This document shows positions 14,826 through 45,132 of a DNA stretch of 64,000 nt, in pieces (positions within the stretch are counted from its first letter, which is position 1; each line of letters starts with the position of its first letter). A model generated the notes under the pieces. The model had not been told where the DNA came from. It saw only the letters and a program-made list of their open reading frames with translations, and did not search any database. The translations under genes were made by a program, and so were the position numbers. The DNA is from an uncultured Devosia sp. (GTDB lineage Bacteria; Pseudomonadota; Alphaproteobacteria; Rhizobiales; Devosiaceae). The stretch is taken from positions 133,522-197,521 of the forward strand of contig CAUQDV010000003.1 in NCBI GenBank assembly GCA_963517015.1. The letters run 5' to 3'.

Positions 14826-14902
<77 letters not shown>

Positions 14903-29343: not shown

Positions 29344-29625
29344 ATGACCAAATCAACGAGCTTTTCATATCGCCCCCGTCTGCGCCGGTGGGCCGCCGCT
29401 GAATATCTGGGCGACATCCATGGTGTGCAAATTGCGCCTTCCACCTTGGCTAAGCTCGCCAGCGTGGGCGGTGGTCCAGCCATCACTTACTTCTCCAAAA
29501 TTCCGCTCTACGCTTTGGCGGACTTGGACGACTGGGCCTTTTCCAAACTGCACCTTCCCACGTCATCGACCTCCGAGACACCGGTCCCATTGTGGATCGG
29601 CAATGAACCCGATCTTGAGCCGTAG
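29344..29625 (+). CDS. AlpA/excisionase-like small DNA-binding protein
   Basis: LRR..AAEYL...STLAKLASVGGGP...PLY...DLDDW. Confidence 0.8.
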   Translation: MTKSTSFSYRPRLRRWAAAEYLGDIHGVQIAPSTLAKLASVGGGPAITYFSKIPLYALADLDDWAFSKLHLPTSSTSETPVPLWIGNEPDLEP

Positions 29626-29635
29626 GAGTTTAGAA

Positions 29636-30628
29636 ATGGACTATACGGCCGCCACTGACCTGTTGCTCAAGGCAAGGGAACACTGCGATCATATTTTTAT
29701 GCATCTGGTCGGGCAGCCCAATCCGCGCGCGTCAGGCAACACCGCCCTGCGGTGGCACGATGATGGCAAACTGCTGCTCAACCTGGCTGGAGACAAGCGC
29801 GGCACCTGGCACAATTTTTCCACCGGTGAGCACGGTGATGTTTGTGACTTTGTCCAGGCAGAGCTCTCGCTGACATGGTGGGATGCGGTTGCCTGGATTG
29901 ATCGCTGGTTCGGCTCACCGAACGACCTCGTTCCGTCGAACGACAGTCGGGGCGCTCCCAAGAAAAACACTGCGAACTGTGCTCCGGACACAAAGAGCTA
30001 TGGCCTTGAGCTTTTCCATGCTGCGAACCCCAGCCTGCAAAACACTATTGCCTACCGCTACCTCCAAAAGCGGCTCCACGGGTTTCTTCCCGAAGAGGTG
30101 GTTCAGGGCGGCTCACTTCGCTTTTCGCCAACTCATCGCAAAATGGCAGGCGTAACCTTCGTGGACTGCGTCGGTGCCCTACTGGCTCTGATGACAGACC
30201 CCAAGACAGGCGAAGCCACCGGAGTTCACCGGACTTTCATCAATTCCAAATTGGAGCGAATTGAAAGGGCTACGCTGGGGACCCAAGGCGTTGTCCGGCT
30301 TTTTCCCGATCACGCTGTTGAGACTGCTTTGGCAGTCGGCGAGGGGATCGAAACCTGCCTCAGTGCTCACCTTTTGCTCGACGGGCCGCCTGTCTGGTCC
30401 TGCTTGAACACGGGAGGTCTCTCGATGATGCCCGTTCTCCATGGCATCGCGGCTCTCACAATCTATGCCGACAACGACGAAAACCAAGCCGGCCAGATTA
30501 GCGCTCGCAAGACCTTCGAGCGCTGGCGCAATGCGGGTGCAGAGGTAACGCTGCATCTTCCAATGACTCAGAGTGCTGACTTCAACACGATGCTGGCCGA
30601 TCTCGTTTCGTTCAAGGCCGCAGAATGA
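29636..30628 (+). CDS. Toprim-domain primase
   Basis: GTW.NFSTGEHGD N-terminal domain, YLQKR, GVHRTF, VGEGIET, YADND. Confidence 0.85.
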   Translation: MDYTAATDLLLKAREHCDHIFMHLVGQPNPRASGNTALRWHDDGKLLLNLAGDKRGTWHNFSTGEHGDVCDFVQAELSLTWWDAVAWIDRWFGSPNDLVPSNDSRGAPKKNTANCAPDTKSYGLELFHAANPSLQNTIAYRYLQKRLHGFLPEEVVQGGSLRFSPTHRKMAGVTFVDCVGALLALMTDPKTGEATGVHRTFINSKLERIERATLGTQGVVRLFPDHAVETALAVGEGIETCLSAHLLLDGPPVWSCLNTGGLSMMPVLHGIAALTIYADNDENQAGQISARKTFERWRNAGAEVTLHLPMTQSADFNTMLADLVSFKAAE

Positions 30629-32796
30629 AAAAGCTTCTGCCGCACGAACCGCGCGCCTCGGCAGCGCAACTGACGCAGACCACGACCAGCGCACACCAGA
30701 ACACCCATATCTTGCCAACTTCTGGGGAGCGTGTTCAGCCTCAAGCTGCGGAAAACAATGATGATTTTTTGTGCCGGAACACAGGAACACCTGGAACACC
30801 CAATTTTATTATCTCGTGTGAGGATGCGGCCAACGACATTGTTGGCCTCGATGCGAATGAGCCATTGTCCGATGTCGGTGTGTTAGGTGTTCCGCGTGTG
30901 CCGGACGATAAAAAAGAGAGTTCAAACAAAGCCGTAGCTTCGGAACACCTGCCTGATCTGCTGCCTTTGGCTGGTGTGCCCGGTGTTCCAAGCAGTTTCG
31001 TCTCGTTCGGTCCTTACCATTCATCCGCACGAGGCCTTTTCTACCTTGCGGACGAGGAAGACGACGCCATGTTCCTGTCCAGCCCGATCGCCATCATCGC
31101 GCTGACGCGCAATGACTCCAACCGTGGTTGGGGCCGTCTCGTGGAAATCGAGGACCGGGATGGCCACATCCACCAGATAGTGATCTCCAGCGAAATGCTG
31201 GCGAAGTCGAGCGGAGAAGCCGTTCGTGTTCTGCTGATGGATGCGGGTGCCACGTTGGCGACAAGGCGCACTCCTGCGGCTCACCTGAACGAATATTTTG
31301 CCACCGTTCAGGTCCCGGCTCGCCGCCGCATTGTCCAGACCACGGGATGGCATGACAACGACTATGTTCTGCCCGGCAAGGTCTATTCTTTGGACGGGAC
31401 CAGTGACCGTGTGTTTTTCAACGCCAACGTTGATACCGCAGCGCAGTCGAGATCCGCCTATGCACAGGCGGGAGACCTCGAAACCTGGAAGAAGGAAATT
31501 GGACGCCTGGCCTGCGGCAACAGCAGGCTGTTGCTCGCACTGGCAATTGCATTTGCCGCGCCGCTGATCGGAAGGCTGGATATATCCGGTGGTGGCGTCC
31601 ACTTCCGCGGCGCCTCTTCGATTGGCAAAACGTCCCTTATCCGGGCCGCCTCCAGCATTTTCTCAGATCAGCGCTTCATGCAGACATGGCGAGCGACTAG
31701 CGCGGGCTTGGAGGGAATTGCCGCTCTTCACAATGACGCCTTGCTGGCGCTCGATGAGATCGGACAGGTTGCTCCCGACGCCGCCTCGGAGGCTGCCTAC
31801 ATGCTCGCCAACGGCCTCGGGCGGACTCGTGCGACCAAGGATGGCTTAGCGAAAGAGACGGCGCGGTTTCGTCTGCTGTTCATCAGCACGGGCGAAGAAT
31901 CTCTTGCCGACCGGGTACAGGATGATCGCATGGGGCGGCGCCGCGCGATGGCCGGTCAGGAAATTCGGATGCTGGATATTCCGAGCGAGGTGGGCAAACA
32001 CGGTGTGTTTGAGAACCTTCATGGTTTCCCCAGCGGCGCCGCGCTGGCCGATCACCTACGCGAGGCTAGCCAGAATCAACATGGGACGCCCTTTGAGGCG
32101 ATGGTGAAAGCCATCATCGCCACCCGTCCAGATGGTATCGAAAGTTTGAAGGCCCGCGTCCGGAGCGTCGCCGGTGAACTGTCGAGGGGCCTTGAAGGAG
32201 GCCAGGTCCTGCGAGCGGCCGAAAGGTTTGCGACGGCTTGTGTCGCGGCACAGTTCGCAAGCGAACACCGCATTGCGCCTTGGTCGTCCAGTGAAGCGAT
32301 GGATGCCATTCGCACCTGCTTCGATGCCTGGCTTCTCGAGCGTGGTGGGGATGGCGCCCTGGAGCGCACAAAAGCCATCCAAGCCGTTCAGCGCTTTATT
32401 CAGGCCCACCAGACCTCGCGGTTTGAATGGATTGGTTCGCCGAAGGCGGAAGACTTTGATCCTGATGACATGCCGCGCACCAACAATCTGGTCGGGTATT
32501 ATTTCCGGGATCGCGATGACGTCCGCTACGGCTTCACCAAAGGCGGACTTGACGAGGCACTCGGGGGCCTCAACTTCAAGACGGCCGTCGCTGATCTGGC
32601 AAATGCCAAATTTCTCGAGAAGGACGGTGCCGGAAAGACCAGTGTCTCAAAGAGTGTGCGTGGCTCCAAAATGCGGCTCTATATGATCAACGCCAGCATT
32701 CTGGAGTTTGAACAGAGCGGACGTGAGCTGCCTGCTGCGGACAATCATGGCGAGACGACAGGTGGTGCGGAGAAATCTGTTCCTTCCAGCATCTGA
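30625..32796 (+). CDS. DUF927-domain replicative helicase (Cch-like); true start may be further downstream
   Basis: WGRLVE..D.DG..H, TGWH, Walker A GASSIGKT, WRAT..GLE, LALDE, YMLANG.GR.R, STGE. Confidence 0.88.
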   Translation: MKKLLPHEPRASAAQLTQTTTSAHQNTHILPTSGERVQPQAAENNDDFLCRNTGTPGTPNFIISCEDAANDIVGLDANEPLSDVGVLGVPRVPDDKKESSNKAVASEHLPDLLPLAGVPGVPSSFVSFGPYHSSARGLFYLADEEDDAMFLSSPIAIIALTRNDSNRGWGRLVEIEDRDGHIHQIVISSEMLAKSSGEAVRVLLMDAGATLATRRTPAAHLNEYFATVQVPARRRIVQTTGWHDNDYVLPGKVYSLDGTSDRVFFNANVDTAAQSRSAYAQAGDLETWKKEIGRLACGNSRLLLALAIAFAAPLIGRLDISGGGVHFRGASSIGKTSLIRAASSIFSDQRFMQTWRATSAGLEGIAALHNDALLALDEIGQVAPDAASEAAYMLANGLGRTRATKDGLAKETARFRLLFISTGEESLADRVQDDRMGRRRAMAGQEIRMLDIPSEVGKHGVFENLHGFPSGAALADHLREASQNQHGTPFEAMVKAIIATRPDGIESLKARVRSVAGELSRGLEGGQVLRAAERFATACVAAQFASEHRIAPWSSSEAMDAIRTCFDAWLLERGGDGALERTKAIQAVQRFIQAHQTSRFEWIGSPKAEDFDPDDMPRTNNLVGYYFRDRDDVRYGFTKGGLDEALGGLNFKTAVADLANAKFLEKDGAGKTSVSKSVRGSKMRLYMINASILEFEQSGRELPAADNHGETTGGAEKSVPSSI
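30776..30989. repeat. GGAACAC / GTGT(T/G)CC iteron-like repeat cluster
   Basis: Forward copies at 30776, 30784, 30793 and 30942; reverse copies at 30887, 30896, 30974 and 30983. Confidence 0.7.
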
Positions 32797-34025
32797 CGAT
32801 ACACCTCGTTCGCGATAATGTTGGCCGCCGCCAAGAGGACGGGGTCCAGATGATGGATGTAGTCGGCGGTGATGGAATGCGTCTCGTGGCCGATGATGGC
32901 GCCGATCGTGCTATCGGTAAACCGCAGGTCATTGCCAATGCTGGCAAATGAATGGCGAAGCGTATGGGCGGTAATGCCCTGTAGGCCGGCCCTTGCGGTA
33001 ATTCGGTCTATTGCGCCGTCCAGCCCTCCGTAGTGGCTGGCGAGGTTCCGAACCCCACTCAAGGCATATGTGCTGGCGTCTTTGCGCGGTAGCTTCTGCA
33101 AGATATCGCGCATGACACCTGTCACCGGCCTCAGCGACCTGCCGGTCTTGGTGTCTTCCAGAATAGCAGTGTCCCTCGAAACGGAAATCCACTTAAGCCG
33201 CGCGATTTCGCTGATGCGAGCCCCGGTTAACGCCAGCAGCCAGACACCATCGCGTGCCTGATAGATCTGATCGTCAGCGTCCCGAAGAGCATCGCCCAGT
33301 TTTTTGTATTCGGCTGGCGTCAGGCGGCGATCCCGCTTGCTATAGGCAGGGCGGGGAACGCCAAACGCTGGGTTGGTCGTGATAATCCCCTTGTGTTTTG
33401 CATACGTCAGTATGCCGCTGAGCAGGCCAGTTGTGCGCGTGGCGGTGCCCGCGCCACCAGTAACGACCACCTTTCCGCGCTTATTAGGGGATGGTTGAGT
33501 GGTAGCGGTCTTGCCGAGTGTTACGTCTGCAATGAATTTGTGGATGTCCGACGGTTTAAGATCAATCACCAGGCGCCGCCCAAGCAGGGGCTTTATGTGG
33601 CGAATGATGCGGCCCTCGTCGGTATCGAGAGTTGACGCCTTCTTGGGCTTCTTCTTGCGACCGAGCACCAGCCCCTTGCGCGCATCGACAAGGTAGTCGT
33701 CGCACAGCTCGCTCACGGTAAGAGATTTGCGACGCGTGCGTCGCTCCAGCGCGGCGTCGCCACCGCGCAGCACATCAGCCAGAATAATGCGCGCCTCCTT
33801 GCGTGCTTCTTCGGTCGTCAGCTTGCCGTGGCTGCCCAGCGCCATGCGGCTGCGCTCACCGCTCCTGTTATAATAGTCGGCATAGTAGGATTTTGCGCCG
33901 CTGGGGAACACGCGGACACCGAAGCCTGCCAGTTCCGAGCACCAGATGAAAAAGGGCTTATCTAGCGCTGCCGCACGATCGACAACGGTCTTGGTCAACT
34001 TCTGTGTTTTTGCGCGCTTGGCCAT
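32745..34025 (-). CDS. Tyrosine integrase with N-terminal arm-binding domain (DUF4102-like)
   Basis: LTKTVVD...W..EL.GFGVRV.PSG.KS; catalytic R (TGARISE), K (DTKTG), HTLRH, IGH, Y (DYIH). Confidence 0.93.
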   Translation of the reverse strand: MAKRAKTQKLTKTVVDRAAALDKPFFIWCSELAGFGVRVFPSGAKSYYADYYNRSGERSRMALGSHGKLTTEEARKEARIILADVLRGGDAALERRTRRKSLTVSELCDDYLVDARKGLVLGRKKKPKKASTLDTDEGRIIRHIKPLLGRRLVIDLKPSDIHKFIADVTLGKTATTQPSPNKRGKVVVTGGAGTATRTTGLLSGILTYAKHKGIITTNPAFGVPRPAYSKRDRRLTPAEYKKLGDALRDADDQIYQARDGVWLLALTGARISEIARLKWISVSRDTAILEDTKTGRSLRPVTGVMRDILQKLPRKDASTYALSGVRNLASHYGGLDGAIDRITARAGLQGITAHTLRHSFASIGNDLRFTDSTIGAIIGHETHSITADYIHHLDPVLLAAANIIANEVYRQMLEGTDFSAPPVVSP

Positions 34026-34188: not shown

Positions 34189-34236
34189 GCCCTCCGAAGG
34201 TAGAGGTCGTGAGTTCGAATCTCGCCGGGTGCGCCA
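34189..34236 (+). repeat. att site: displaced 3' half of tRNA-Arg(CCG), copy 1
   Basis: GCCCTCCGAAGGTAGAGGTCGTGAGTTCGAATCTCGCCGGGTGCGCCA; no 5' half upstream. Confidence 0.9.
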
Positions 34237-34292
34237 CTCCTTCCCCCAGTGTTTCCAGTGCTTTTGCACCACCTCCGCCACCCAATGAGGCG

Positions 34293-34812
34293 ATGTCTTC
34301 GGCCGCTTCGGCCACAGATTGGCAACAGAATGCGCCCGTTGGGCCGGCGGAGGCTGGCCATGCGTCCCGCGAGCAAACACGACACGGCCGTCGCCAGCTC
34401 ACCTCAGATGACCTGGTCCGAGAGGCTACCGGCCGCCGGATGGAGCCGATCGCATTCCTGGAAAAGCTGGTGGCAGACAGAAAGCTCGCACACCAGACCC
34501 AGGTCATCGTCGAGAAGATGGCAGCTGCGGGCGCGGACCTGCGCCTCTCGAACACCAATAGCCGAGTTGATCTTCTGACGTTGGAGGTCGATCAACCTGC
34601 TGGTTTTCGGGCATGCCGCTTTCTACCGTTAGTGGCTCGCCGGGAGCGCTCCGCCTACCTCACGTCGTTGGAGGCCTTTTTGGCAGACTCCGCAGCACGG
34701 CATGCTCGGTACGGCGTGGTCACCATGGGGCTACCGGTTTGGTCGCGCAACGTGCGATTGCGATCCTTGCTAAAGCGATTTCATCGCAAGATCAGCAAGT
34801 GGGCGGCAAACG
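34293..34812 (+). pseudogene. Truncated possible replication-initiator (rolling-circle Rep-like) N-terminus
   Basis: FRACRFLP...R...RYGVVT.G...LKRFHRKISKW, then the frame runs into antisense umuD sequence; family call tentative. Confidence 0.35.
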
Positions 34813-35191
34813 GCGGCAATCTGGCATTCTCGTTATGCAGTATCATGACCCCGCCGCGACGATTGAGCCGCTTGAGCGTGGGTTCGCCATCAATGATTAC
34901 GAGAACGACATCACGATCTTTGGGTGCCAAGGAGCGGTCGACAACGACAACGTCGCCCGGGAAAATCTTCACGTCGATCATACAGTCGCCCACGACCCGC
35001 CAGAGATAAGACGAAATGGGATTGGGGACGAGAACCTGGTTGAGGTCGATCATCTCCTCGATGAAATCGTCTGCCGGGGATGGGAAACCGGCGTGGACTG
35101 CTTGGCCGACGAGTGGGATGAGTATCTCTATCAGCGTCGAGAGAGGAACCGGCATGCCGCCAGGTGCCATAACAATTCTCGAGATACGCAT
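34781..35191 (-). pseudogene. umuD: UmuD-like S24 peptidase, C-terminally truncated
   Basis: AGFPSPADD, IDLN..L, RVVGDCM, GD..VVDRS, TLKRL; the usual terminal (I/W)GVV strand is missing; no umuC follows. Confidence 0.75.
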
Positions 35192-35234
35192 GCGTCGACT
35201 CCTCGGCGATGTGCCAAGGCTCGGTTATATGCAC

Positions 35235-35249
35235 GAACAAACACAGAAC
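35235..35249 (-). promoter_or_regulatory. Alphaproteobacterial LexA box
   Basis: GAAC-AAACACA-GAAC (GTTC-N7-GTTC on the minus strand) ~45 bp upstream of umuD. Confidence 0.85.
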
Positions 35250-35944
35250 AAAAGTCCGACTTAGATCACAACTGACGGTTCGATTTGCCCGGGTGTGATT
35301 GGAAACTGGCCGACACATCAAGGCAATCAGTTTGCCGATCGATGCTCCAGCTCATTGACGGGCCTTATTGTTCAGAGCAGGCAAACGTGAGGAATTGTGC
35401 GAATCCTGTCGAGAACGGATCTACGATCAACTGGATCGAAGAACGAGAGAGCAATTTGGAGAATCGTGCGGTAGCTGCAACCCGTCAAAGTCGCGGGTTG
35501 ACGCGATCCAAACGGCCAGACACTCACCCCAACCGACCGCCATCGGCGGCGGGGTGAGGCCGCAGGCCCGGCCGTTTGGGTCGAGTCAAGCTGAGCCAAG
35601 GTTCCAGGGAATTGCGGAGCGATTTTCTGGAAAGCTCAGCGACCCCAACTTTGTCGTCCCCGTCTAATCATCGAGCCCAACCAACAGATTGGTAGTCGTC
35701 ATGAGCCGGGCCGTAGGCCTCGTCCCCCCTGGCGCAGAGCGACGAAGGGGGGCGGCTCATTCCAATACCGCGTCAATAAAAGCGGCAAAGTCCCGCAGGG
35801 CCCTCGGAGAGCTCACGAACTTTTGGGGTGGCGAAGCCGGGGCCCAAAAAGTGCAAAGTGAGTTCCCGCTTTTCTACCGAAGCGGGAATCTGGTTTTTTG
35901 TCTTTTGGATTTTCATCCGCTTGCCGGACGTTCGGCTAGGCCGT

Positions 35945-36149
35945 AGTCGGATGCTGCCATCTGTCCGGCCTCTGATGCAGCACCAGAGGCTGCGGGCCCG
36001 TATGGGAGTTCGCGGACCGGATCCATATCACCCACGGCGTGCTCAAGGCACAGTGGATTGCGCTGGTTTTCCGATCCCGTCTCACCGACTGTTGCGCCAT
36101 ACCTTCCTTCGACCGACTCCGTCTTCGACGACCTCTGGTCCGCCTTGGC
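35945..36149 (-). ncRNA. Putative bridge/seek RNA region of the IS1111-type element
   Basis: Non-coding region downstream of the transposase with two stem-internal-loop units carrying guide-like segments; exact ends unknown. Confidence 0.6.
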
Positions 36150-37181
36150 TTATGCCGCAGCCGCGACCGGAGCTTTGTATTCCTCTTGTTTGATGAGCAG
36201 CGCCCAGATGATACGCGCGGTCTTGTTGGCCAGTGCTACGGTGACCAGCATGCGCGGCTTGCGGGCCATCATCTGCTCCAACCACGATCCTGCCGGTGCA
36301 CCTCGTCGACTGGCCTGCAGGACGACTGCACTGCATCCGATGATGAGCAGGCGCCTCAGCGTTCGTTCGCCCATCTTCGTGATCGATCCGAGTTTCTGCT
36401 TGCCTCCGCTCGAGAGCTGACGCGGCGCCAGACCCAACCAGGCCGCGAAGTCCCGGCCTTTGGTAAACGTCTCGGCTGGTGGCGCGAGGGCGGCAATCGC
36501 TGTCGCGGTGATCGGGCCCACGCCTGGTATTGTCATCAGTCTCCTGGCGATCAGATCCTCACGGGCGAGTCGGGCGATCTCCTTGTCCAGTTTGGCGATC
36601 TTGACGTTCAGCACCTCAAGCAGATCGAGCATCATGCGGAACATGGGCTTGGCCGCATCCGGAAGCGACGCGCCTATCTCGCCATCAAGCAGGTCACCGA
36701 GCACAGCTATGTGCGACGGTCCCTTTGGCGCCACCCAGCCATACTCGGTCAGGTGACCGCGGATCGCATTGATCAACTGGGTCCGCTGCCGCACCAGCAG
36801 GTCGCGGGTTCTAAACACCAGCGCCGATGCCTGTTGCTCCTCGTTCTTGATGGCCACAAACCGCATGTTGGGTCGCTGCGCGGCTTCGCAGATGGCTTCT
36901 GCATCGACGGCATCGTTCTTGTTCCGCTTCACGAAGGGCTTCACATAGGCCGGCGGGATCAGCTTGACCCTATGACCCAGCAGCGTCATTTCCCTGGCCC
37001 AGTGATGCGCACCGCCGCAGGCCTCCAACGCCACCAGGCAACGGGGCTGTTTGGCGAAGAACTCCAGCAACTTGGTCCGGCTGATCTTGCGACTGAACAG
37101 CGGCCTGCCGCTGGCATCTGCGCCATGCGCATGAAAAACGTTCTTCGCGATATCCAGACCGATTGTGGTAACTTCCGACAT
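36150..37181 (-). CDS. IS110-family recombinase/transposase
   Basis: IGLDIAK, LEAC, KNDAVDAEA (DEDD), IPGVGPITA, SSGGK (catalytic Ser); GAGGAGG RBS. Confidence 0.95.
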   Translation of the reverse strand: MSEVTTIGLDIAKNVFHAHGADASGRPLFSRKISRTKLLEFFAKQPRCLVALEACGGAHHWAREMTLLGHRVKLIPPAYVKPFVKRNKNDAVDAEAICEAAQRPNMRFVAIKNEEQQASALVFRTRDLLVRQRTQLINAIRGHLTEYGWVAPKGPSHIAVLGDLLDGEIGASLPDAAKPMFRMMLDLLEVLNVKIAKLDKEIARLAREDLIARRLMTIPGVGPITATAIAALAPPAETFTKGRDFAAWLGLAPRQLSSGGKQKLGSITKMGERTLRRLLIIGCSAVVLQASRRGAPAGSWLEQMMARKPRMLVTVALANKTARIIWALLIKQEEYKAPVAAAA

Positions 37182-37255
37182 GGGCGCCTCCTCAAGTGGT
37201 GTGTTCAACACCTCCACTTTGGCACATCGATGCCGCCGGGGGGCGTCCACCCCAT

Positions 37256-37299
37256 CACCCCCGAGGCGACGGTCGGCCGTCGACCCCATTTCAGTCATT
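37256..37299 (+). repeat. Degenerate tandem ACCCC-core repeat, copy split by the IS
   Basis: CACCCCCGAGGCGACGGTCGGCCGTCGACCCCATTTCAGTCATT aligns with 37620-37662. Confidence 0.7.
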
Positions 37300-37619
37300 C
37301 AACATGACGCCGTCGCTTTATGTAAGCTGCTATAGCCAGTCATGATCCGACTGCTTAGTCGGATCAAGGTCCGCGCCAAGGGGCTCTAACAGAATGTCGA
37401 GTCTCCGGTAGTACTCGTCGGTTTTCGGTAAGCCGAAGTTGTCCCGAACATGGCGGCGTACGGATCCGATGATGGTATCCATCTCGTGCCTGAAATGTGG
37501 CGGATAATCAGCGAGGTCCATGCCCGGTCTCTAAGACTAAGTCCCAACGAACATATCACCGGAGTCAGGGCATGTCCCTTTCCAGGAGGCGGTATCTTAT
37601 TAGCAGTCCGTCTTCTACC

Positions 37620-37662
37620 CACCCCGGAAGAGCCGGTCTCACACCGACCCGTTTCAGTCAAT
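37620..37662 (+). repeat. Degenerate tandem ACCCC-core repeat
   Basis: CACCCCGGAAGAGCCGGTCTCACACCGACCCGTTTCAGTCAAT. Confidence 0.7.
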
Positions 37663-37724
37663 AGCTCCATGTTTGCGTTCATGAAATCGGCCAGTAAGAT
37701 TACTCCTTTGGGAGGAAATAGCGA

Positions 37725-38336
37725 TCAAGCGTCGTCGCTGATGACAATCTGGCAGTCTCGCTCGTGGCCCGCTGCGATATTGGCCTCGTTACAGGCATCC
37801 AAAGCGCCGGCTGCATTCTCACCCGCCCAGATCTCGAAAATGGTGCTGCTGGAGGAGCGTGCCACGACGGCGCCTTCCGGCAACTGATTGGCGGTTTCGG
37901 CCAGCGCCCTGATTGCCTCGTGATGCAGTTGCGGCATGGCCTCTGTCCAGCCTTCGGGCAGGATCTCGCCGAACAGGCTGCATTCGCCATCGCCCGCTTC
38001 CCTGGCTTCTTCGCAATCGGCAAGCGCGCCCGCCTTTGCCGCGTCGCGAGAGTGCAGGCCGCTACGGAGCTTGATTTCCATAATGCCGCCGTCCGCCGGA
38101 ATATATGCGTAGATGGCACCATAGAAATGGTTGTTCATGACATCCATGCCGATCTGGCCTGCAAGCTCCTGCAACTGTTCCTGTGGTAACAGGTCGGAGG
38201 AAACGTCTATGGTAAAGCTCACATGGTCGGGCAGGTTTTCCAGGGCCGCAGCTAACGTCATGGGTGCAGGGCCTTCCTGGGCCGTTGCCGCGCCGGTCAA
38301 TGCCATCGCCATTCCCAGAGCCAAAAGCGTCTTCAT
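37725..38336 (-). CDS. Secreted protein with two DUF4189-like repeats
   Basis: Signal peptide (ATA-Q); YGAI...A...ALADC...EC and A..AL.ACN...DC repeats. Confidence 0.6.
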   Translation of the reverse strand: MKTLLALGMAMALTGAATAQEGPAPMTLAAALENLPDHVSFTIDVSSDLLPQEQLQELAGQIGMDVMNNHFYGAIYAYIPADGGIMEIKLRSGLHSRDAAKAGALADCEEAREAGDGECSLFGEILPEGWTEAMPQLHHEAIRALAETANQLPEGAVVARSSSSTIFEIWAGENAAGALDACNEANIAAGHERDCQIVISDDA

Positions 38337-39017
38337 CGTGTCTCTCCGTGGATTCATATCAATGTGACGATGGCATTAGGTCGGACCTTGGTCGAAGGAT
38401 AAACATCGTGCTCGCCATGACCACAATCATGGCAATCCTTCTCATAGTCCGCACAGCGCCGAGGTCGTTGTTGTCCCTCATCGCAAGCCACCTGCCAAGG
38501 TTTCCTGGTCTGCGAGCGTCCTACTGTCAAATCCAAGAAGGGACACCATCATGCCTGTGAGGTTGACCAATGCATTTGACCCGTCGACGGAACGCCTGAT
38601 CCAGATATCGATGGCAGTGGGCATCGCTGGACTTTCCTGTTTTCCATCCCTCGCGAGTGAAAGCACCGTGCGAGAATTGGACGCCTACTGCATCACGGCC
38701 GAAGGCACGCGCATGGGCGTAGCGGCCAGCCAGGATGGTGCGACAAACACCTATGTCTGGCCGCATGGCGCGGACATGGAGATTACCCGAAGTGCGCACA
38801 ACCGCATGATCGTTTCCCTTTGGCACAGGGAACTGGATTTGATTGGCTTCGACAGCCTGACAAGTCACGCAATCCCGCCACCCCATTGTGCGATCGCGCG
38901 AGAAGAGCAGGGGCAGTACCACGTCGTTCGCTGGCCTGAGGGTCAGACGCCGCCGTCGCTTGCGGCAGTGTTCGCTGCCATGCTGGTTGGTAGCTCGACG
39001 CAAGGAAGGCCAGTCCG

Positions 39018-39362
39018 ATGATGCGTGCTTCGGTCTTCATGGGCGCGTGGAATTTCAGCCTTGGCTTTGGCCTTGTCCTGTCGGCCATGGCCACTCCGGC
39101 CGTGCAGGCAGCTTTGCCGCCCGAGAGCCGGCGCGTATCCGAAGTCCACGCCGTGCTCGATGCAACAGCCAGGGCCCTCGCCGGTCGCGGCGAGATCATC
39201 GTCTCGATCGAATTTGCGGATCCGGACTATGTGGTCCGGTCGCGAAACTGCACCGTGACTGCTCGACTGGTTGCACCAGAGTCTGCGGCCGGTCCGGAGG
39301 CGGTGCCAGTTCCCGGACCGCGGCAATTCTCAGTCACGATAGAGCCGCCCATTTGCGACTGA
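39018..39362 (+). CDS. Small secreted hypothetical protein
   Basis: Signal-like N-terminus (VQA-ALPP), two Cys, ends C-D-stop. Confidence 0.55.
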   Translation: MMRASVFMGAWNFSLGFGLVLSAMATPAVQAALPPESRRVSEVHAVLDATARALAGRGEIIVSIEFADPDYVVRSRNCTVTARLVAPESAAGPEAVPVPGPRQFSVTIEPPICD

Positions 39363-39421
39363 ATTTGTGGATTTTGACTGCGTTTTCGCGGCTGTCGATC
39401 GCGAATCCGCGGTGAGATTTC

Positions 39422-40072
39422 ATGCTTTTGCTCGGTAATCCCTGGATCGGCGCCATAGGGAAGTCGTCTTTCGCGCTGGCGCTCGATGACGTGGTGATCC
39501 AGGCGCCAGCACCCGAAGCCATGGCTGCCTTGACCAAAACCGATCCGTCCGTTGCCGACAATACCATCCTGGCGGCCGCGCTTGACGGACTGAGTGGGAG
39601 TGTCAAGAGCGACGGGCATCAGATCGTACAGGCCGTGGTCATTTCACCTGCATTCGGCCTTGCCGACATCGACCCTGCCGCCGTGATTGGGGCGACCAGT
39701 ATCGATGAGGCCAAAACCGTGCTGGAGGCAGCGATGTTCGAAGGGACGCAGGGCATCCCACCTTATCTCGGCGGCATTGTTGCCGATGTGCAGCATGAAC
39801 TCGGCCCAACCGTCACGATCGCACTGACCTATCCCGACTGTGAAACCGCCGACAAAAGCGTTGCTGCGCTTGAGGAGCGCTGGGCTGCCAACATGGCCAC
39901 GGTGGCTCAGGCAAATGGGCTGTCCATTGCCGCAGAAGGGGCGCTTTGTGCCGCAGTGGTGAGCTTTATCGGAGAAGATGCGGGCGACGCCGGCAATCCT
40001 TTATTCGTCGAAACCCTCAGCCGCCATACCAGGCGTGAATTCAACCTGCTTCAGATCGGAGCCGCATCCTAG
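39422..40072 (+). pseudogene. Probable C-terminal fragment of a larger periplasmic protein
   Basis: Coding-like composition with no RBS or signal peptide; begins abruptly. Confidence 0.4.
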
Positions 40073-40124
40073 GCAATCGATCAAAATTGATAGATCAGGC
40101 CGGATGGCAACATGAGAGGCGCGC

Positions 40125-40595
40125 TTGAGCGACAACAGTCTTCATCTCGTACCCGTCCACCAGGGCGACTATCCCAATGCCAGGGACAAAGCGCACCAGG
40201 CCCTGGCCTTTCTCGTTGAAAGAGACATGGTGGAGGCTCAGCCATCCGACTGCACGCTTGCGACAGCTCCTGGCCACCGTTTCCTGCCGGGTGCCAGGGA
40301 GCTGTTTGAGGATGGCGATGCAATCCATCTCGGTCTCGCCGTGTCTGGCGTCAGTCTCGAATGCGAAGGCCGTCGGGCTTTCCACCCCATGGAAAGCGCG
40401 GATTTGAACCTGACCTGCGCCACCTGTGGCCGGGTCCATATGTTCGACGAGGCGGTCGAATTCATTCCCGGCTGGCTGTCCGGCGAACAGGAATTTCCCC
40501 GCTGTCTGGCCTGTGGTACCGCGCGGCATCTTGCTGAGTGGAATTGTCAGCCCGAATGGGCCTTCAGCAATCTGGGTCTCACCTTCTGGAATGGC
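40125..40595 (+). pseudogene. Cys-rich (2x CxxC) hypothetical protein, 3' truncated
   Basis: LTCATCG...CLACG...W...P.WAFSNLGLTFWN, then reads into the antisense of a convergent gene. Confidence 0.5.
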
Positions 40596-40816
40596 GGCAC
40601 GTCGTCCGAACGTTCGACGAGCACGGCGCAATCAATATCCTCCCGCTCAGACAGTTCGCGAGGGTACCCCGGTCGCACTTCACCCCGGCTGGGGTCCATT
40701 TCTCGCGAGATGTCCGCAATGCGCTCCGCCAAGGCGATACACTCGGGAGGTACGCCGGCGAATGAAGGTGTCGAGACAATCGCCAAGATGGCCACTAACA
40801 GAGAACGCTTTATCAT
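40590..40816 (-). pseudogene. Secreted protein N-terminus, truncated
   Basis: MIKRSLLVAILAIVSTPSFA signal peptide; collides with the convergent ORF near 40595. Confidence 0.45.
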
Positions 40817-40953
40817 TGATGGGTCCACCCCGTCGGTCTACGATTTCCAACGTTGTATCAGCGTGTTGAGGCCGCGTCCCGTTGATAGCGACAGCAGGAC
40901 GGACCGCGTAGCGCCGAACCGAAGGGTCACCTGCGCCGCCTGTGGAGAGTAAC

Positions 40954-41454
40954 ATGAGGAAAATTCTGCACGTAACGATCTCGCTGGCAGCGTTGCTGCC
41001 CCTCCCGGCCGTCGCGGCGCCGACGTGCTTCTCGCGAGTTTACTCGCCCGATCATCTCGATAACAATCCTGGCCAGCAGGTCGCCCAAATCCGAGCTCTG
41101 CACATCCCCAGGATCAACGACATGCCGGAAAGTTATGACATCCGCGTCAGGTTCCGCGACGACACTCGGGAGTTCTCTGCCATAACATATTGCGACGATA
41201 TCGACGGCACGACGACCTGTATGATCGAATGCGATGGCGGGATCGTTCTTCCAACGTTCGATCAAAGTGGTCGATTGCGATTGAACACCGAGTATCTGCG
41301 CGCGGAATACGCGAGATCGGCGGCAGAGGAGATTGGCTGCGCGGAACCAGTGACGCGTTCGATTGCCGATGTTTCGCCATCAGGAGATGCCATGCCGACG
41401 GTATTTCTTCTGCATTCAGAAGAACCTGGGCTGTGCGACTGGGACGGTCGATAA
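40954..41454 (+). CDS. Secreted Cys-rich hypothetical protein
   Basis: Signal peptide; CFSRVY...HL..NP.QQV and CMIECDGG motifs; GGAG RBS. Confidence 0.7.
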   Translation: MRKILHVTISLAALLPLPAVAAPTCFSRVYSPDHLDNNPGQQVAQIRALHIPRINDMPESYDIRVRFRDDTREFSAITYCDDIDGTTTCMIECDGGIVLPTFDQSGRLRLNTEYLRAEYARSAAEEIGCAEPVTRSIADVSPSGDAMPTVFLLHSEEPGLCDWDGR

Positions 41455-41511
41455 GTCCGGCAGTCCAAATTGACGACATGGAATACAGCCTATGACCCAG
41501 ATTAAGCGCTC

Positions 41512-41988
41512 ATGATTGCCTCTGCCACACTTTCGATTGCTGCTGGTGTTCTCATGTGCCTTTTTACGGCATTCCCCCAGCCCATGGCGCAATCGACGTC
41601 GATCTATGAAGACAGCGCCGTCATACCGCCAAACGCCGCCTATGTCGGCACCGCCGACGGTGGCCAATTCATAGTTCTGGAACGGCGGGACATTCCATCC
41701 GATGACGGCAACGCACAGGTCGGGTTCTATATGCAGGTCTTTTATGCCTGGTCCACCGGCGGGCCCTACGGGAGAGAGCGCATAGGCGATCTCGCATTTG
41801 AAGGTAACACAGTCTACGTCCCACCGCCGGGATTGCCGCCTGACCTCCAGGTGCCGACGGTAGACTACATCCTTGGCACCACGGACGGGGATGCAAATTC
41901 CTCCTTTGAAGACGGTGTGCTGTCCATCCGCATGCCGGAGACCCACGGGAGTCAAAGCAAATGGATATCCCGCCTCGTACCCTTTTAA
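41512..41988 (+). CDS. Secreted hypothetical protein
   Basis: Signal-like N-terminus (PMA-Q); coherent acidic coding sequence. Confidence 0.55.
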   Translation: MIASATLSIAAGVLMCLFTAFPQPMAQSTSIYEDSAVIPPNAAYVGTADGGQFIVLERRDIPSDDGNAQVGFYMQVFYAWSTGGPYGRERIGDLAFEGNTVYVPPPGLPPDLQVPTVDYILGTTDGDANSSFEDGVLSIRMPETHGSQSKWISRLVPF

Positions 41989-42081
41989 TGGAGCTGGAAC
42001 GCGATTATGCGGCAACGTTTATGCGCTCGGGCGGCATCCATGCAATTGTCGGTTCATCATCAACAATCGAAGGGTCTGGTC

Positions 42082-42561
42082 ATGGTCCGCGTTCGCGCCA
42101 CCGTCTTGATGGTCGCCTGTTCAATGGCCATCGGTTTGCCGGCGGCAGCCAAGTCAGAGAGCGTTTTTACGCCTGCGCCGGGCTCAAATGAGCGCACTGC
42201 CATACTGGATGCGCTACGTAGCGGCACCGAAGTTTTCGTGGTCGAGGAGATGAATGTCCAGGTCACCGATTGCGGAGCATCGGCATTCGTTATCGCTGAT
42301 AGCGGCGGTGCCAGCGCGATTTCCGCACTTTTGGTCAGCGACAGGGATGGCCCGTGGTTGCCAATACTGATCATGAATGATGGCAGCGAGATTTGCGGAC
42401 AGGATATGGCCCACCGATTTGAGACCGTTGCTGCTGCGATTGAGGAACATGGCGGAAATGCCGACAGCATCATGCCCGGTTTCTCGGAATTGGTCGTAGA
42501 AGTAGCATCGTCAGACGGTCTGCATTGCCTTCCTGACGTCTCTTTTCCGTCCCTCGAATAG
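42082..42561 (+). CDS. Secreted hypothetical protein
   Basis: Signal peptide; TPAPGSNERTAILDALR motif. Confidence 0.65.
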   Translation: MVRVRATVLMVACSMAIGLPAAAKSESVFTPAPGSNERTAILDALRSGTEVFVVEEMNVQVTDCGASAFVIADSGGASAISALLVSDRDGPWLPILIMNDGSEICGQDMAHRFETVAAAIEEHGGNADSIMPGFSELVVEVASSDGLHCLPDVSFPSLE

Positions 42562-42655
42562 GGTCGCAGTAGCAATCGTCTTTGCCGATTGCCCTTGATG
42601 CAAGCCCGCCTCTGGCAAGGGTTGGCCCCGCCGCCCGCGCTATGCACCTATGAAG

Positions 42656-43060
42656 CTAGATCTCGGGACTTTCCGCTGGTGCCCTAGCGATATGCGCGAG
42701 GATCAATTCTCGCGTCACCCGCTGATTGCCCGGATATTCGTTGAAGCGGGACGAAACTGCGGGGCCGTAGCCGGACAGGGATCGATCACTCTGGCTGGAC
42801 AGCCAGTTCGTAAATTCCTCGTCGCTGTCAAAGGTGAGTAAGGGCTCTCCGTGCGGCAGGCCATCCTGCGACTGGGAGAGGAAGAAGACGCAGGCCTTGC
42901 GATCGTGGAAGAGACCGTGGCCTGTATAGTCGCGATGCGCCCGGACAATGGCGCCCAGATCGCCAAACCATCTGTGCCGTTTCAAAAAGGCGGCCGCGTC
43001 AAGCGCCAAAGCATTGCCGAACTGCAATCCGTCATATCGATCTAAACTGAAGGATGTCAT
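42656..43060 (-). CDS. Hypothetical cytoplasmic protein
   Basis: 134-aa ORF with globular composition; ATGA overlap with an upstream gene remnant. Confidence 0.55.
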   Translation of the reverse strand: MTSFSLDRYDGLQFGNALALDAAAFLKRHRWFGDLGAIVRAHRDYTGHGLFHDRKACVFFLSQSQDGLPHGEPLLTFDSDEEFTNWLSSQSDRSLSGYGPAVSSRFNEYPGNQRVTRELILAHIARAPAESPEI

Positions 43061-43207
43061 TGGCTGATCTCGTCCGTGTACTCACCGCAATAGATCGTGT
43101 CATCGACTATGCGGAAGTAGATGTCATAGGGTCGACCGAAATTGGCCTGCATTTCCACAATTGCTGCCCTCTGCTGAATGGCCTGTCAGTCACGAATTCG
43201 CGGCCCC

Positions 43208-43801
43208 CTATTGCGCGACCAGCACGGCGCGGATCGGAATGGAAAACGTCTCCGACACGGGGATGGTACTTGCATCATTTTCGTAGGATATCGCCAGATC
43301 GAACCGCACGACAAAATCCTGCGGCGCGTTATTGGCGGGTCGGCCCCAGCTCGGCAATATACGGCTGCGAATTGCGTCAACGTGCCTTGTCCAACTGCTG
43401 ATCAGCAGATCCTCGCCGGCTCCGATTGTTTTGTGCTGCGCATTGGTGCCGCCGGTGACATCGTTGAAATCCACAGCCTGATTGGCCCTGCCTGCAGGCC
43501 AGATGGCCGTGGACCGGAAAGATCGCGCAGGGTCTAGCTGATAGCTTACAGTGACCGGTTCAGGACCTGTATTACGGATGCGCACTGTCGGCGTGTAGGG
43601 AGCAAGATTCGCGGTCCCCTGCGGCTCGATACACAAAGTGTCCGCACCGAACACCTCAAGCACCAACATACCGCTGGATTTCGTATCGAGTGTCCTGCTT
43701 TCCATACTGCATCCATCGGACGATGCCCCATTTGCAGGCGCGCAGACCAAAACTGCGGTGAGTGCTGTTTGGATAAGTTTGCCCGATATCCGCTTGAACA
43801 T
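43208..43801 (-). CDS. Secreted beta-rich hypothetical protein
   Basis: Signal peptide; V.IRNTG.EPV.V Ig-like pattern. Confidence 0.6.
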   Translation of the reverse strand: MFKRISGKLIQTALTAVLVCAPANGASSDGCSMESRTLDTKSSGMLVLEVFGADTLCIEPQGTANLAPYTPTVRIRNTGPEPVTVSYQLDPARSFRSTAIWPAGRANQAVDFNDVTGGTNAQHKTIGAGEDLLISSWTRHVDAIRSRILPSWGRPANNAPQDFVVRFDLAISYENDASTIPVSETFSIPIRAVLVAQ

Positions 43802-43824
43802 CTCTATTGCTCCCTATCGCGACT

Positions 43825-43877
43825 GTCCGAACCTAGCCCGCCACTGCCGGGCTGCGATCAACCCCATTTCGGTCATC
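43825..43877 (+). repeat. Degenerate tandem ACCCC-core repeat
   Basis: Ends GGCTGC-GAT-CAACCCC-ATT-TCGGTC-ATC; further copies at 44032-44073 and ~44507-44558. Confidence 0.6.
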
Positions 43878-44093
43878 GCGCACCTCGGGACTAGCACCGG
43901 AAGGCGGACCTGCCCAAGTCGGGTCCTTTTCAGTTTTCGGAACATCAGGATACTCCGTCGAAGCCTAAACTGCGATTCCGGGTCAAAGCAGAGACAAGTC
44001 TGCTTTGGCCTTTCCCTGGCTAATGCCGCATGTCTGCTAACTACCCCGACGACGTCGGTCTCCACTCCACGCCTTAGATGTGGCTTAGGAGAT

Positions 44094-44450
44094 CTAGACG
44101 GCAAGCTCCCGTCGGGATGCCAAAGCCAGCGCTGCGATCAAGTCATCGGGGATTGGTTTCGACGGTGAAAAGGCGACACCAGTTTTGGAAGCCTTAAGGC
44201 CAGCTGAAGCGATGTCGTCAGCATGGTGAGCAATGGCGCCTTTCGCCACGTAAAGACCGCACTGTTTGCTGAACGCACCATAGCCTGCGATGATTTTCTT
44301 CCCGAAACCAAAACCTGGCATGCCGTACTGATTGATCTCCTCAGCGTCGGGGAGAGTCCGTCTTAGCTGGTCGCGGACGTGAGCAAGCTGCGGCCGTAGA
44401 GCTTCCGGTGCAGCAGCGATATATGATGCGTGGTCGAGAAATTCCGTCAT
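44094..44450 (-). CDS. DUF1801 (YdhG-like) protein
   Basis: YIAAAP...R..L...R..LP.AEE...YGMP.F; GGAGG RBS. Confidence 0.8.
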   Translation of the reverse strand: MTEFLDHASYIAAAPEALRPQLAHVRDQLRRTLPDAEEINQYGMPGFGFGKKIIAGYGAFSKQCGLYVAKGAIAHHADDIASAGLKASKTGVAFSPSKPIPDDLIAALALASRRELAV

Positions 44451-44720
44451 GTCTGATCCTCCGCTACAGTTCGGTAATTCGCACACATAGCCATGTTCGA
44501 TTTAAGCCCGAAGTTCACCAAAACCAGACGGACTGCAAACCACCCCATTATGGACATCCGTGATAGCAAACTCTTGTTGCTCATTGACCAACTGGCAGGA
44601 CAGTTTTGGGACAACGCAACACACAAAGAGCAGTAAAGACGCCTTGAAAAAATACGAAGCCATCCTATAAGTTTCAATGCGTTAGCAGTATTGACAAAAC
44701 GGGAAAAGTCTAAAATCGAA

Positions 44721-44765
44721 CTCCGAAGGCAGAGGTCGCAGGTTCGAATCCTGTCGGGTGCGTCA
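44721..44765 (+). repeat. att site: displaced 3' half of tRNA-Arg(CCG), copy 2
   Basis: CTCCGAAGGCAGAGGTCGCAGGTTCGAATCCTGTCGGGTGCGTCA; begins exactly at the anticodon loop. Confidence 0.9.
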
Positions 44766-45132
44766 AGTTTTATATTTAAATTCAGTTACTTAAGCTTCTG
44801 TTCTGTAGGATTTTGATCCTCAATCAAGCGGCTTGCAGGCTTTATACCGATCTAAAAAGCCCAATCCTTTCAAAGGCGCCCAAATCCGCGAATACTGCAA
44901 CGAGGGGCTGATATGCGCTCTGATAGCGTTGGTATGCTCCGCACTATCGCAATATCTGGAAATCCTTGTCATGCTCTTCTGCGTCTCCATGGCGATCAAG
45001 AGCTGGCAGAGCATGACTACGACAGATATCTGGCACGATTCTCAAGGGAAAGTTTCTCACGGCGGAGGCTGCGACCAAAGCGATGAAGGCTGGCGGCGGT
45101 TCTATCTTTCAGACCGAGTCCGTTTGGGCGAT

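Follow-up and report, generated by a model that had tools for sequence, protein, structure and literature searches.

The window analysed here, a stretch of 64,000 nt from an uncultured Devosia sp., carries a tRNA-Arg(CCG) gene at 14826-14902 and, downstream of it, two copies of the 3' part of this gene (34189-34242 and 44718-44771; 78-81% alike), which mark tandem islands. The second island segment, 34242-44718, yielded no integrase and harbors the insertion sequence (IS) described below. Ahead of this segment, 29420-34025 encodes a Toprim primase, a DUF927 helicase and a converging tyrosine integrase adjoining the att copy at 34189, genes which we take to be a satellite/PICI-like replication and integration module. 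Within the segment, a lone UmuD-like S24 peptidase is encoded at 34781-35191 (minus strand), with an 81% identical paralog at C1:1183188, just past a tRNA-Met and beside a cluster of the repeat discussed below; it is followed by a GC-rich non-coding block (35702-35938) with hairpins and a terminator-like site (35862-35889), which is 80% conserved in two genus genomes. On the other side of the IS, about ten short genes in both orientations, none with a Pfam match and several with signal-peptide-like starts (judged by eye), occupy 37728-43801; they lie between repeat copies, and most neighbors among them are not separated by a scoring repeat. The last 62 nt of the subsequent DUF1801 gene (44094-44156) recur at C1:498105-498166 (81%), directly behind the sole repeat copy that matches the guide perfectly. 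The idea that this gene is a repeat-bounded cassette was rejected, as it found no DNA match in 300 order-level genomes (E 1e-15) and only the 62-nt end fragment recurs, beside the repeat at C1:498105.

Judged by its sequence, the element is an IS110-family, IS1111-group insertion sequence, in which the recombinase gene is followed by a structured 3' region, the predicted bridge/seekRNA (Table 1). The 343-residue recombinase matches both PF01548 (DEDD_Tnp_IS110) and PF02371 (Transposase_20), scores 333 bits with the NCBIfam model for IS110 RNA-guided transposases, NF033542 (cut-off 140), and finds the ISCro4 and IS621 recombinases in the PDB. D10, E53, D90 and D93, presumably the catalytic residues as in the rest of the family, are present, as is a GLAPRQLSSG motif at 250. 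Position 205 is L where 54 of 54 relatives have R (R205L); the deviations at conserved columns number four in total, which is typical for the family. The G--P----SG motif is named as an IS110-family hallmark in section 6 of PMC11187229, and sections 6 and 7 of the same source give the IS1111 group a transposase of 330-350 aa and a 7-bp left extension; the window element fits these sizes with its 343 aa and the left extension TG+ATGGG, and has the short left end (76 nt) and long downstream non-coding region (at least 210 nt) of the IS1111 type. Members of this group also carry subterminal inverted repeats of 7-17 bp at both ends. It is single-copy in the 4.07-Mb genome (4 contigs) at both DNA and protein level, and its nearest named relatives are from Devosia. 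For comparison, 79 related loci were drawn from the best 80 of 575 confirmed candidates.

Table 1. Coordinates of the element, its RNA and the neighboring repeat copies in the window.
Feature	Position	Strand	Remarks
Breakpoint in GGCTA microhomology	35934..35938	.	Lost beyond: -35 box, inverted repeat, AGA, core
Predicted bridge/seekRNA (3' non-coding region)	35940..36149	-	All family-consensus helices present (27-sequence alignment)
Right donor guide CAGATG	35958..35963	-	Compared with right ends of 55 relatives
Candidate left donor guide CCCAT	36002..36006	-	Equals left-end extension
Right target guide (GT)GGGTG	36029..36035	-	Reverse complement CA-CCC(AC)
GTGC/GCAC stem closing target loop	36039..36051 (GTGC 36051-36048, GCAC 36042-36039)	-	4 pairs, 100% of cells paired
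Left target guide GCAATCCA (6 nt plus CA core)	36054..36061	-	Covariation with right-junction flank
IS110-family (IS1111 group) DEDD recombinase	36150..37181	-	343 aa, open frame
Left subterminal inverted repeat GTGGACGCCCC, 11 bp	37240..37250	-	Its inverse closes the right end in intact relatives
Left-end extension: core TG (37257-37256; CA on plus strand) plus ATGGG	37251..37257	-	Constant in relatives, flank variable
Right part of interrupted repeat: guide-read CCC, spacer, then GTC...GACCCC-ATTTCAGTCATT unit	37258..37299	+	Two-unit layout as in intact copies C3:8348 and C1:1218277
Degenerate repeat copy	37598..37660	+	18.2 bits, under the 19-bit level separating from controls
Degenerate repeat copy	43996..44075 (matrix match 44020)	+	20.2 bits; HMM 10.8 bits
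Empty repeat	44492..44560 (matrix match 44519)	+	24.0 bits, matrix from other genomes

Folded alone, the window RNA is no better than a shuffled sequence (z -0.89), and an Rfam scan gave no family at gathering score for it, the sole Rfam match being a tRNA. The consensus fold of 27 hand-picked aligned sequences has 40 pairs, 15 of them with two-sided changes, a number that none of 500 shuffles reaches, the structure being derived from the same alignment. In this fold the GTGC/GCAC stem is flanked by the two target guides, both left single-stranded; one pair of the stem shows 6 two-sided changes among the 27 sequences. Sequencing runs were searched as well; none covered half of the stretch, four proved to be contigs of relatives covering the IS alone, and a 20.5-kb 'RNA' contig shows no expression. 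An earlier note on this DNA had read the non-coding region as an IS1111-type bridge RNA, and family assignment, consensus fold and guide covariation bear this out; the motifs it had picked, CGCAATCCA at 36062-36054, the GTGC/GCAC stem, GGGTG at 36033-36029, CCCAT at 36006-36002 and CAGATG at 35963-35958, are all found where it placed them.

Guides and flanks were compared in 80 rows (the 79 loci plus the window). The target loop could be parsed in 60 of these, after correction of one by hand, and 40 of the 60 also had a right and 38 a left junction. The left guide matches the right flank at 5.25 of 7 non-core positions, against 2.14 +/- 0.24 in permuted pairings (n=40), and the right guide matches the left flank at 2.87 of 3, against 1.08 (n=38); counting one row per distinct guide, the values are 5.1 against 2.05 for 29 left guides and 2.86 against 1.12 for 21 right guides. 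None of 10,000 permutations reaches the observed match for either guide, also with one row per distinct guide; since the relatives are kin, the corresponding p-values overstate the significance. The changes in the guides of related copies are thus mirrored in their flanks. The outermost base of CGCAATCCA is matched in only 12% of cases (0.12) and does not co-vary; the left guide is therefore GCAATCCA, and comparison of the relatives points to the 11-mer GCAATC-CA-CCC as the target of the guides. Of the previously proposed target, CGCAATC-CA-CCC, all but the leading C is thus retained, with CA as the core. The 12-mer CGCAATCCACCC was rejected as a target; it has no exact match in the genome and its first base does not co-vary. 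G-U wobble is unsupported as a source of guide mismatches (11/161 vs 7/145, p 0.31).

The 60 parsed rows contain 39 distinct left guides. In a prospective test, metagenomes were scanned with the left-guide pattern alone, which gave 17 loci, 14 of them parsed and 12 with a right junction; with two relatives from the genus added, there are 14 right junctions, 13 of them distinct. Nine of these 13 read GCAATC-CA exactly, in line with the predicted target; the other four deviate from it, by 1, 2, 3 and 3 mismatches. One relative with the same guide, L089, is inserted at GCAAAC-CA, the variant also found at the 44534 site of the window. On the other side of the core, all 17 distinct left junctions of relatives with the GGGTG guide read CCC.

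The left junction of the window copy reads CCCCAT-CA-CCCC (37250-37261), and an uninterrupted site from 44534 reads TGCAAAC-CA-CCC, both as previously reported. The second of these had been taken for an empty repeat; this is supported by its score (Table 1) and by the insertion of L089, with the same guide, in exactly that variant. Its guide-read 11-mer, GCAAACCACCC at 44535-44545, has one mismatch to the guide. The repeat itself is laid out as GTCCGCTT-N17/18-AAAGCGGAC, then GTCCGC-WWY-CCACCCC-AAAGC, then GTC...GACCCC-ATT.CGGTC.TT; in a gap-free alignment, its copies show one dyad after another. When the genome was scanned with a matrix built from 27 insertion sites of other genomes (with one column set by hand to allow C or G), 21 sites reached at least 19 bits, while three Markov controls gave 1, 0 and 0; two or three of the 21 have the appearance of chance matches. 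Plain regular expressions for the repeat perform at chance level (8, 50 and 118 matches vs 7, 49 and 118 in a Markov control). The repeat is thus real, with about 20 genomic copies, and the 11-mer target is the center of its dyad. In the part of it that abuts the left end of the IS, the GTC...GACCCC-ATTTCAGTCATT unit is weak when taken alone (11.2 bits with the repeat HMM, E 0.52), and the remnant left of the break yields only 2.7-4.1 bits as repeat context; as the right junction of the window copy itself is gone, the left half of its target is not observable.

Thirteen of the 21 repeat copies lie in 3-kb windows below the 10th GC percentile of the genome, and clusters of them adjoin tRNA genes and recombinase genes. 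A strict 20-mer derived from the genome's repeat copies occurs in 52 of 109 genus genomes (reversed control 0) and in none of 400 other genomes sampled from the phylum; of its 95 matches in the genus, 13 carry the triplet that fits the window guide exactly. In two regions, C1:795000-925000 and C1:1187000-1218000, the copies point mostly in one direction per cluster (the second is minus throughout, the first largely plus beyond 810 kb), and an open reading frame for a 214-residue tyrosine recombinase lies amid repeat copies at C1:813853. PF04986, for an IS91-type enzyme, was not found in the genome, and the control genomes gave none either; no integron integrase was identified among the 11 tyrosine-recombinase matches in the genome, which are unclassified. 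A literature search, with most subscription journals outside its scope, returned no description of the repeat.

That the IS is guided by RNA into a local repeat family, as the note had it, holds insofar as the window copy sits in the repeat; the repeat, however, is genome- and genus-wide rather than local, and not all relatives share it as a site. Among sites of relatives with the GGGTG guide, 15 of 27 have repeat context of at least 3 bits outside the bases that the guide reads (leave-one-out); the same level is reached by 3 of 31 sites of relatives with other guides and by 21 of the 258 GCNNNCCACCC sites in the genome. With the repeat HMM, 7 of 15 reconstructed empty sites give a match, compared to 0 of 25, in a comparison that is partly circular. 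The repeat is thus strongly over-represented and yet accounts for only about half of the sites. On an alternative reading, the guide recognizes an 11-mer and nothing else; insertions would be common in the repeat because its copies provide matching 11-mers in intergenic DNA that can be disrupted without harm, and the element would not be specifically adapted to it. This reading fits the 12 of 27 sites that lack repeat context, the 8 of 15 reconstructed empty sites that stay under 10 bits with the repeat HMM, and the 104 genomic sites within one mismatch of the 11-mer. It does not readily explain why guide variants of the GGGTG group differ mostly at three positions that are variable in the repeat, why L083 and L091, with 2-3 mismatches to their guides, are nevertheless inserted in variants of the repeat type, or why the GGGTG guide is spread over several branches of the recombinase tree. 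On this quick tree of 62 recombinase proteins (26 loci being left out as duplicates or partial proteins), the GGGTG guide shows 6 changes, at least 4 of them forced, and GCAATCCA occurs in three places, so that the history of the GGGTG guide is that of an old target often lost or of one repeatedly regained. In the genome itself, one of the 21 repeat copies matches the guide perfectly and five with one mismatch, and two of the three exact 11-mers lie outside repeats. On balance, a guide that reads only the 11-mer is a reading we consider quite possible, if at somewhat less than even odds.

Conversely, the recombinase could read more than the guide does, recognizing the dyad (hairpin) of the repeat and tolerating guide mismatches inside repeats, as for ISPpu10, for which a preprint (10.64898/2026.03.19.712850), in its available text, provides a precedent. 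The insertion point is in fact the center of the dyad, and the mismatched insertions of L083, L089 and L091 have repeat-like flanks; these are three cases only, however, their mismatches could reflect drift of the guide after insertion, and about half of the sites have no repeat context, which makes dyad reading rather unlikely. A wider proposal, which we consider unlikely as well, is that a module-exchange system not yet described recombines at the repeat, with copies pointing mostly one way in tRNA-anchored islands. Several lineages of IS1111 elements would then exploit this system, their guides for the spacer of the central dyad having been retained or gained anew in step with its variable triplet, much as IS1111-attC elements do with integrons. 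If this were so, it would explain the gathering of small accessory genes in islands, and the IS guides would provide a probe for finding the system across Alphaproteobacteria. The target repeat is in any case a more open lead than the IS itself.

In 50 of 55 relatives the right donor guide repeats the final 6 nt of the element exactly, and in all 55 it agrees with the first 4 of these (counted by hand); the five exceptions differ in the core only, and three variant forms change together with the element end. By this comparison, the right donor guide co-varies with the end that it would read. CCCAT, in contrast, is almost invariant in the relatives; in a single clade (9 loci) the left donor guide and the element end both change at position 5, with position 4 mismatched, and this is the one clade-level co-change seen. 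The consensus fold, moreover, pairs CCATAC (36005-36000) with the upstream GTATGG (36103-36098; both minus strand), 2 of the 6 pairs showing two-sided changes, so that CCCAT does not clearly lie in an open loop; the pairing is possibly a switch, or the sign of a structural segment. Of the previously proposed donor, CCCAT-CA-TCTG, the right half is thus supported by the relatives, whereas CCCAT, which equals the left-end extension, is a plausible but weakly supported candidate for the left donor guide.

Intact relatives start with TG-ATGGG-GTGGACGCCCC and finish with TTGC..-GGGGCGTCCAC-AGA-TG, which is the IS1111 layout as given in the available text of PMC11187229 and PMC11208160. The window copy has its left end intact (37240-37257), including the left 11-bp inverted repeat; the right one, present in intact close relatives, is deleted. 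Homology to the relatives ceases near 35940, 40-45 nt before the right end, at the GGCTA that is common to the IS and the host side, and the IS-free homologs L139 and L140 match the host side up to the same breakpoint; as their homology does not continue into the repeat, the deletion may exceed these 40-45 nt. The other end, noted before as missing, is indeed absent: the right end of the family was found neither after the window RNA nor elsewhere in the genome, with up to one mismatch allowed. The left end, likewise, is unique in the genome. In three loci of one species (L068, L069 and L076), a second, inverted copy of the same IS right end follows about 1.1 kb downstream, with identical flank.

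These considerations suggest, with a probability of about 85%, that an IS1111-group element entered the center of a dyad repeat by RNA-guided recombination and that its right end was lost at a later stage. The guide-target correspondence, the right donor guide, the repeat context and the truncation are supported by comparison with the relatives; RNA expression, protein binding, circle formation and chemistry would follow by analogy from published IS110/IS1111 work. The ends of an intact element would join into a circle, placing the donor CCCAT-CA-TCTG between the two 11-bp inverted repeats and building a promoter at the junction (TTGCGT, 17 nt, GATGAT); the 3' RNA would bind the recombinase, its target loop would pair with both strands of the target (GCAATC-CA on one, CA-CCC on the other), and strand exchange would take place at the CA core. 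The rebuilt circle junctions of intact relatives show such an arrangement (TTGC.., 17 nt, GATGAT), with the spacing fixed in 48 of 49.

The window copy has lost the -35 half of this promoter together with its right end, and should thus be immobile. The features of an active IS, namely two intact ends, a circle junction promoter and multiple copies, are not found in it; since it cannot rebuild a circle and the genome offers no donor partner, the copy has most likely been stranded. The earlier note had suggested that it might nonetheless still act in trans, as a working source of recombinase and RNA, and the open frame with its catalytic motifs and the intact RNA helices would allow for this. 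Read-through transcription suffices for low-level excision of IS621 according to the available text of PMC13626964, so that weak expression of the window copy is possible, and the non-coding region of ISEc11 works in trans (section 7 of PMC11187229). There is, however, no evident substrate: neither a second copy nor a MITE-like end pair was found in the genome, and the bare donor 11-mer, which occurs four times, lacks the inverted repeats. With the -35 box lost, no sigma-70-like promoter found in 35600-37800 and R205L at an invariant column (albeit among four deviations, a typical total), activity in trans is very unlikely, and we do not retain the suggestion. That the right end is missing through an assembly error, the element being intact in the organism, is scarcely credible, for although there is only a single assembly and no sequencing run of the strain was found (best share of words 0.19), the break sits in a 5-nt microhomology common to the IS and the host side, in a genome of only 4 contigs in which the element is single-copy.

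The preferred reading, RNA-guided insertion followed by truncation, makes the element a clear new instance of a mechanism already known, rather than a new system. For an IS1111 clade that uses a CA core and has often been retargeted in nature, it adds a natural guide-target pair with good support, and the natural guide variants form a ready set for bridge-recombinase work, best taken from the intact relatives. Homing of IS1111 elements to a repeated site in accessory DNA has a parallel in the IS1111-attC group (Post and Hall, 2009), which reportedly behaves in this way. Unlike the integron attC targets of that group, the repeat described here has, judged by eye, no attC layout.

Target choice by RNA in IS1111 elements is covered in the available text of PMC11187229 and PMC11208160, and insertion of IS110-family elements into repeats in that of PMC1525189, PMC12288879 and 10.64898/2026.03.19.712850. 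The motifs of the window RNA gave no match in the searchable text supplements of PMC11187229 and PMC11208160; one protein motif matched a row of the latter that lists IS1114, ISBcen2, ISBj4, ISPfl1 and others, which is a motif match and not an identity. As far as their available descriptions go, the seekRNA elements ISEc11, ISPa11, ISKpn4 and ISPst6 (Siddiquee et al., 2024; PMC11187229) share with the window element a recombinase of 330-350 aa with the GL-P----SG motif, subterminal inverted repeats with a 7-bp left extension, a long downstream non-coding region, and a pair of short matches to the target, which overlap there; the window element differs from them in its target, its CA core, its alphaproteobacterial host range and its missing right end, and in being known from sequence alone. 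As in the IS621 and IS1111 bridge RNAs (Durrant et al., 2024; PMC11208160, available text), the left guide corresponds to the top strand and the right guide to its reverse complement around a 2-nt core, the donor guides lie in a second, multi-branch region, and the RNA is located in the right end, as for IS1111; the core, however, is CA and not CT, and the left donor guide can pair within the RNA. The closest parallel for the target is found in the REP-targeting elements ISPa11, ISPpu9, ISPpu10 and ISRm19 (Tobes and Pareja, 2006, PMC1525189; PMC12288879; and the ISPpu10 preprint, each in its available text), whose insertions likewise fall at one set position within a dispersed palindromic repeat; going by these descriptions, the Devosia repeat is set apart from REPs by its low copy number (about 20), its several dyads and its location in low-GC regions.
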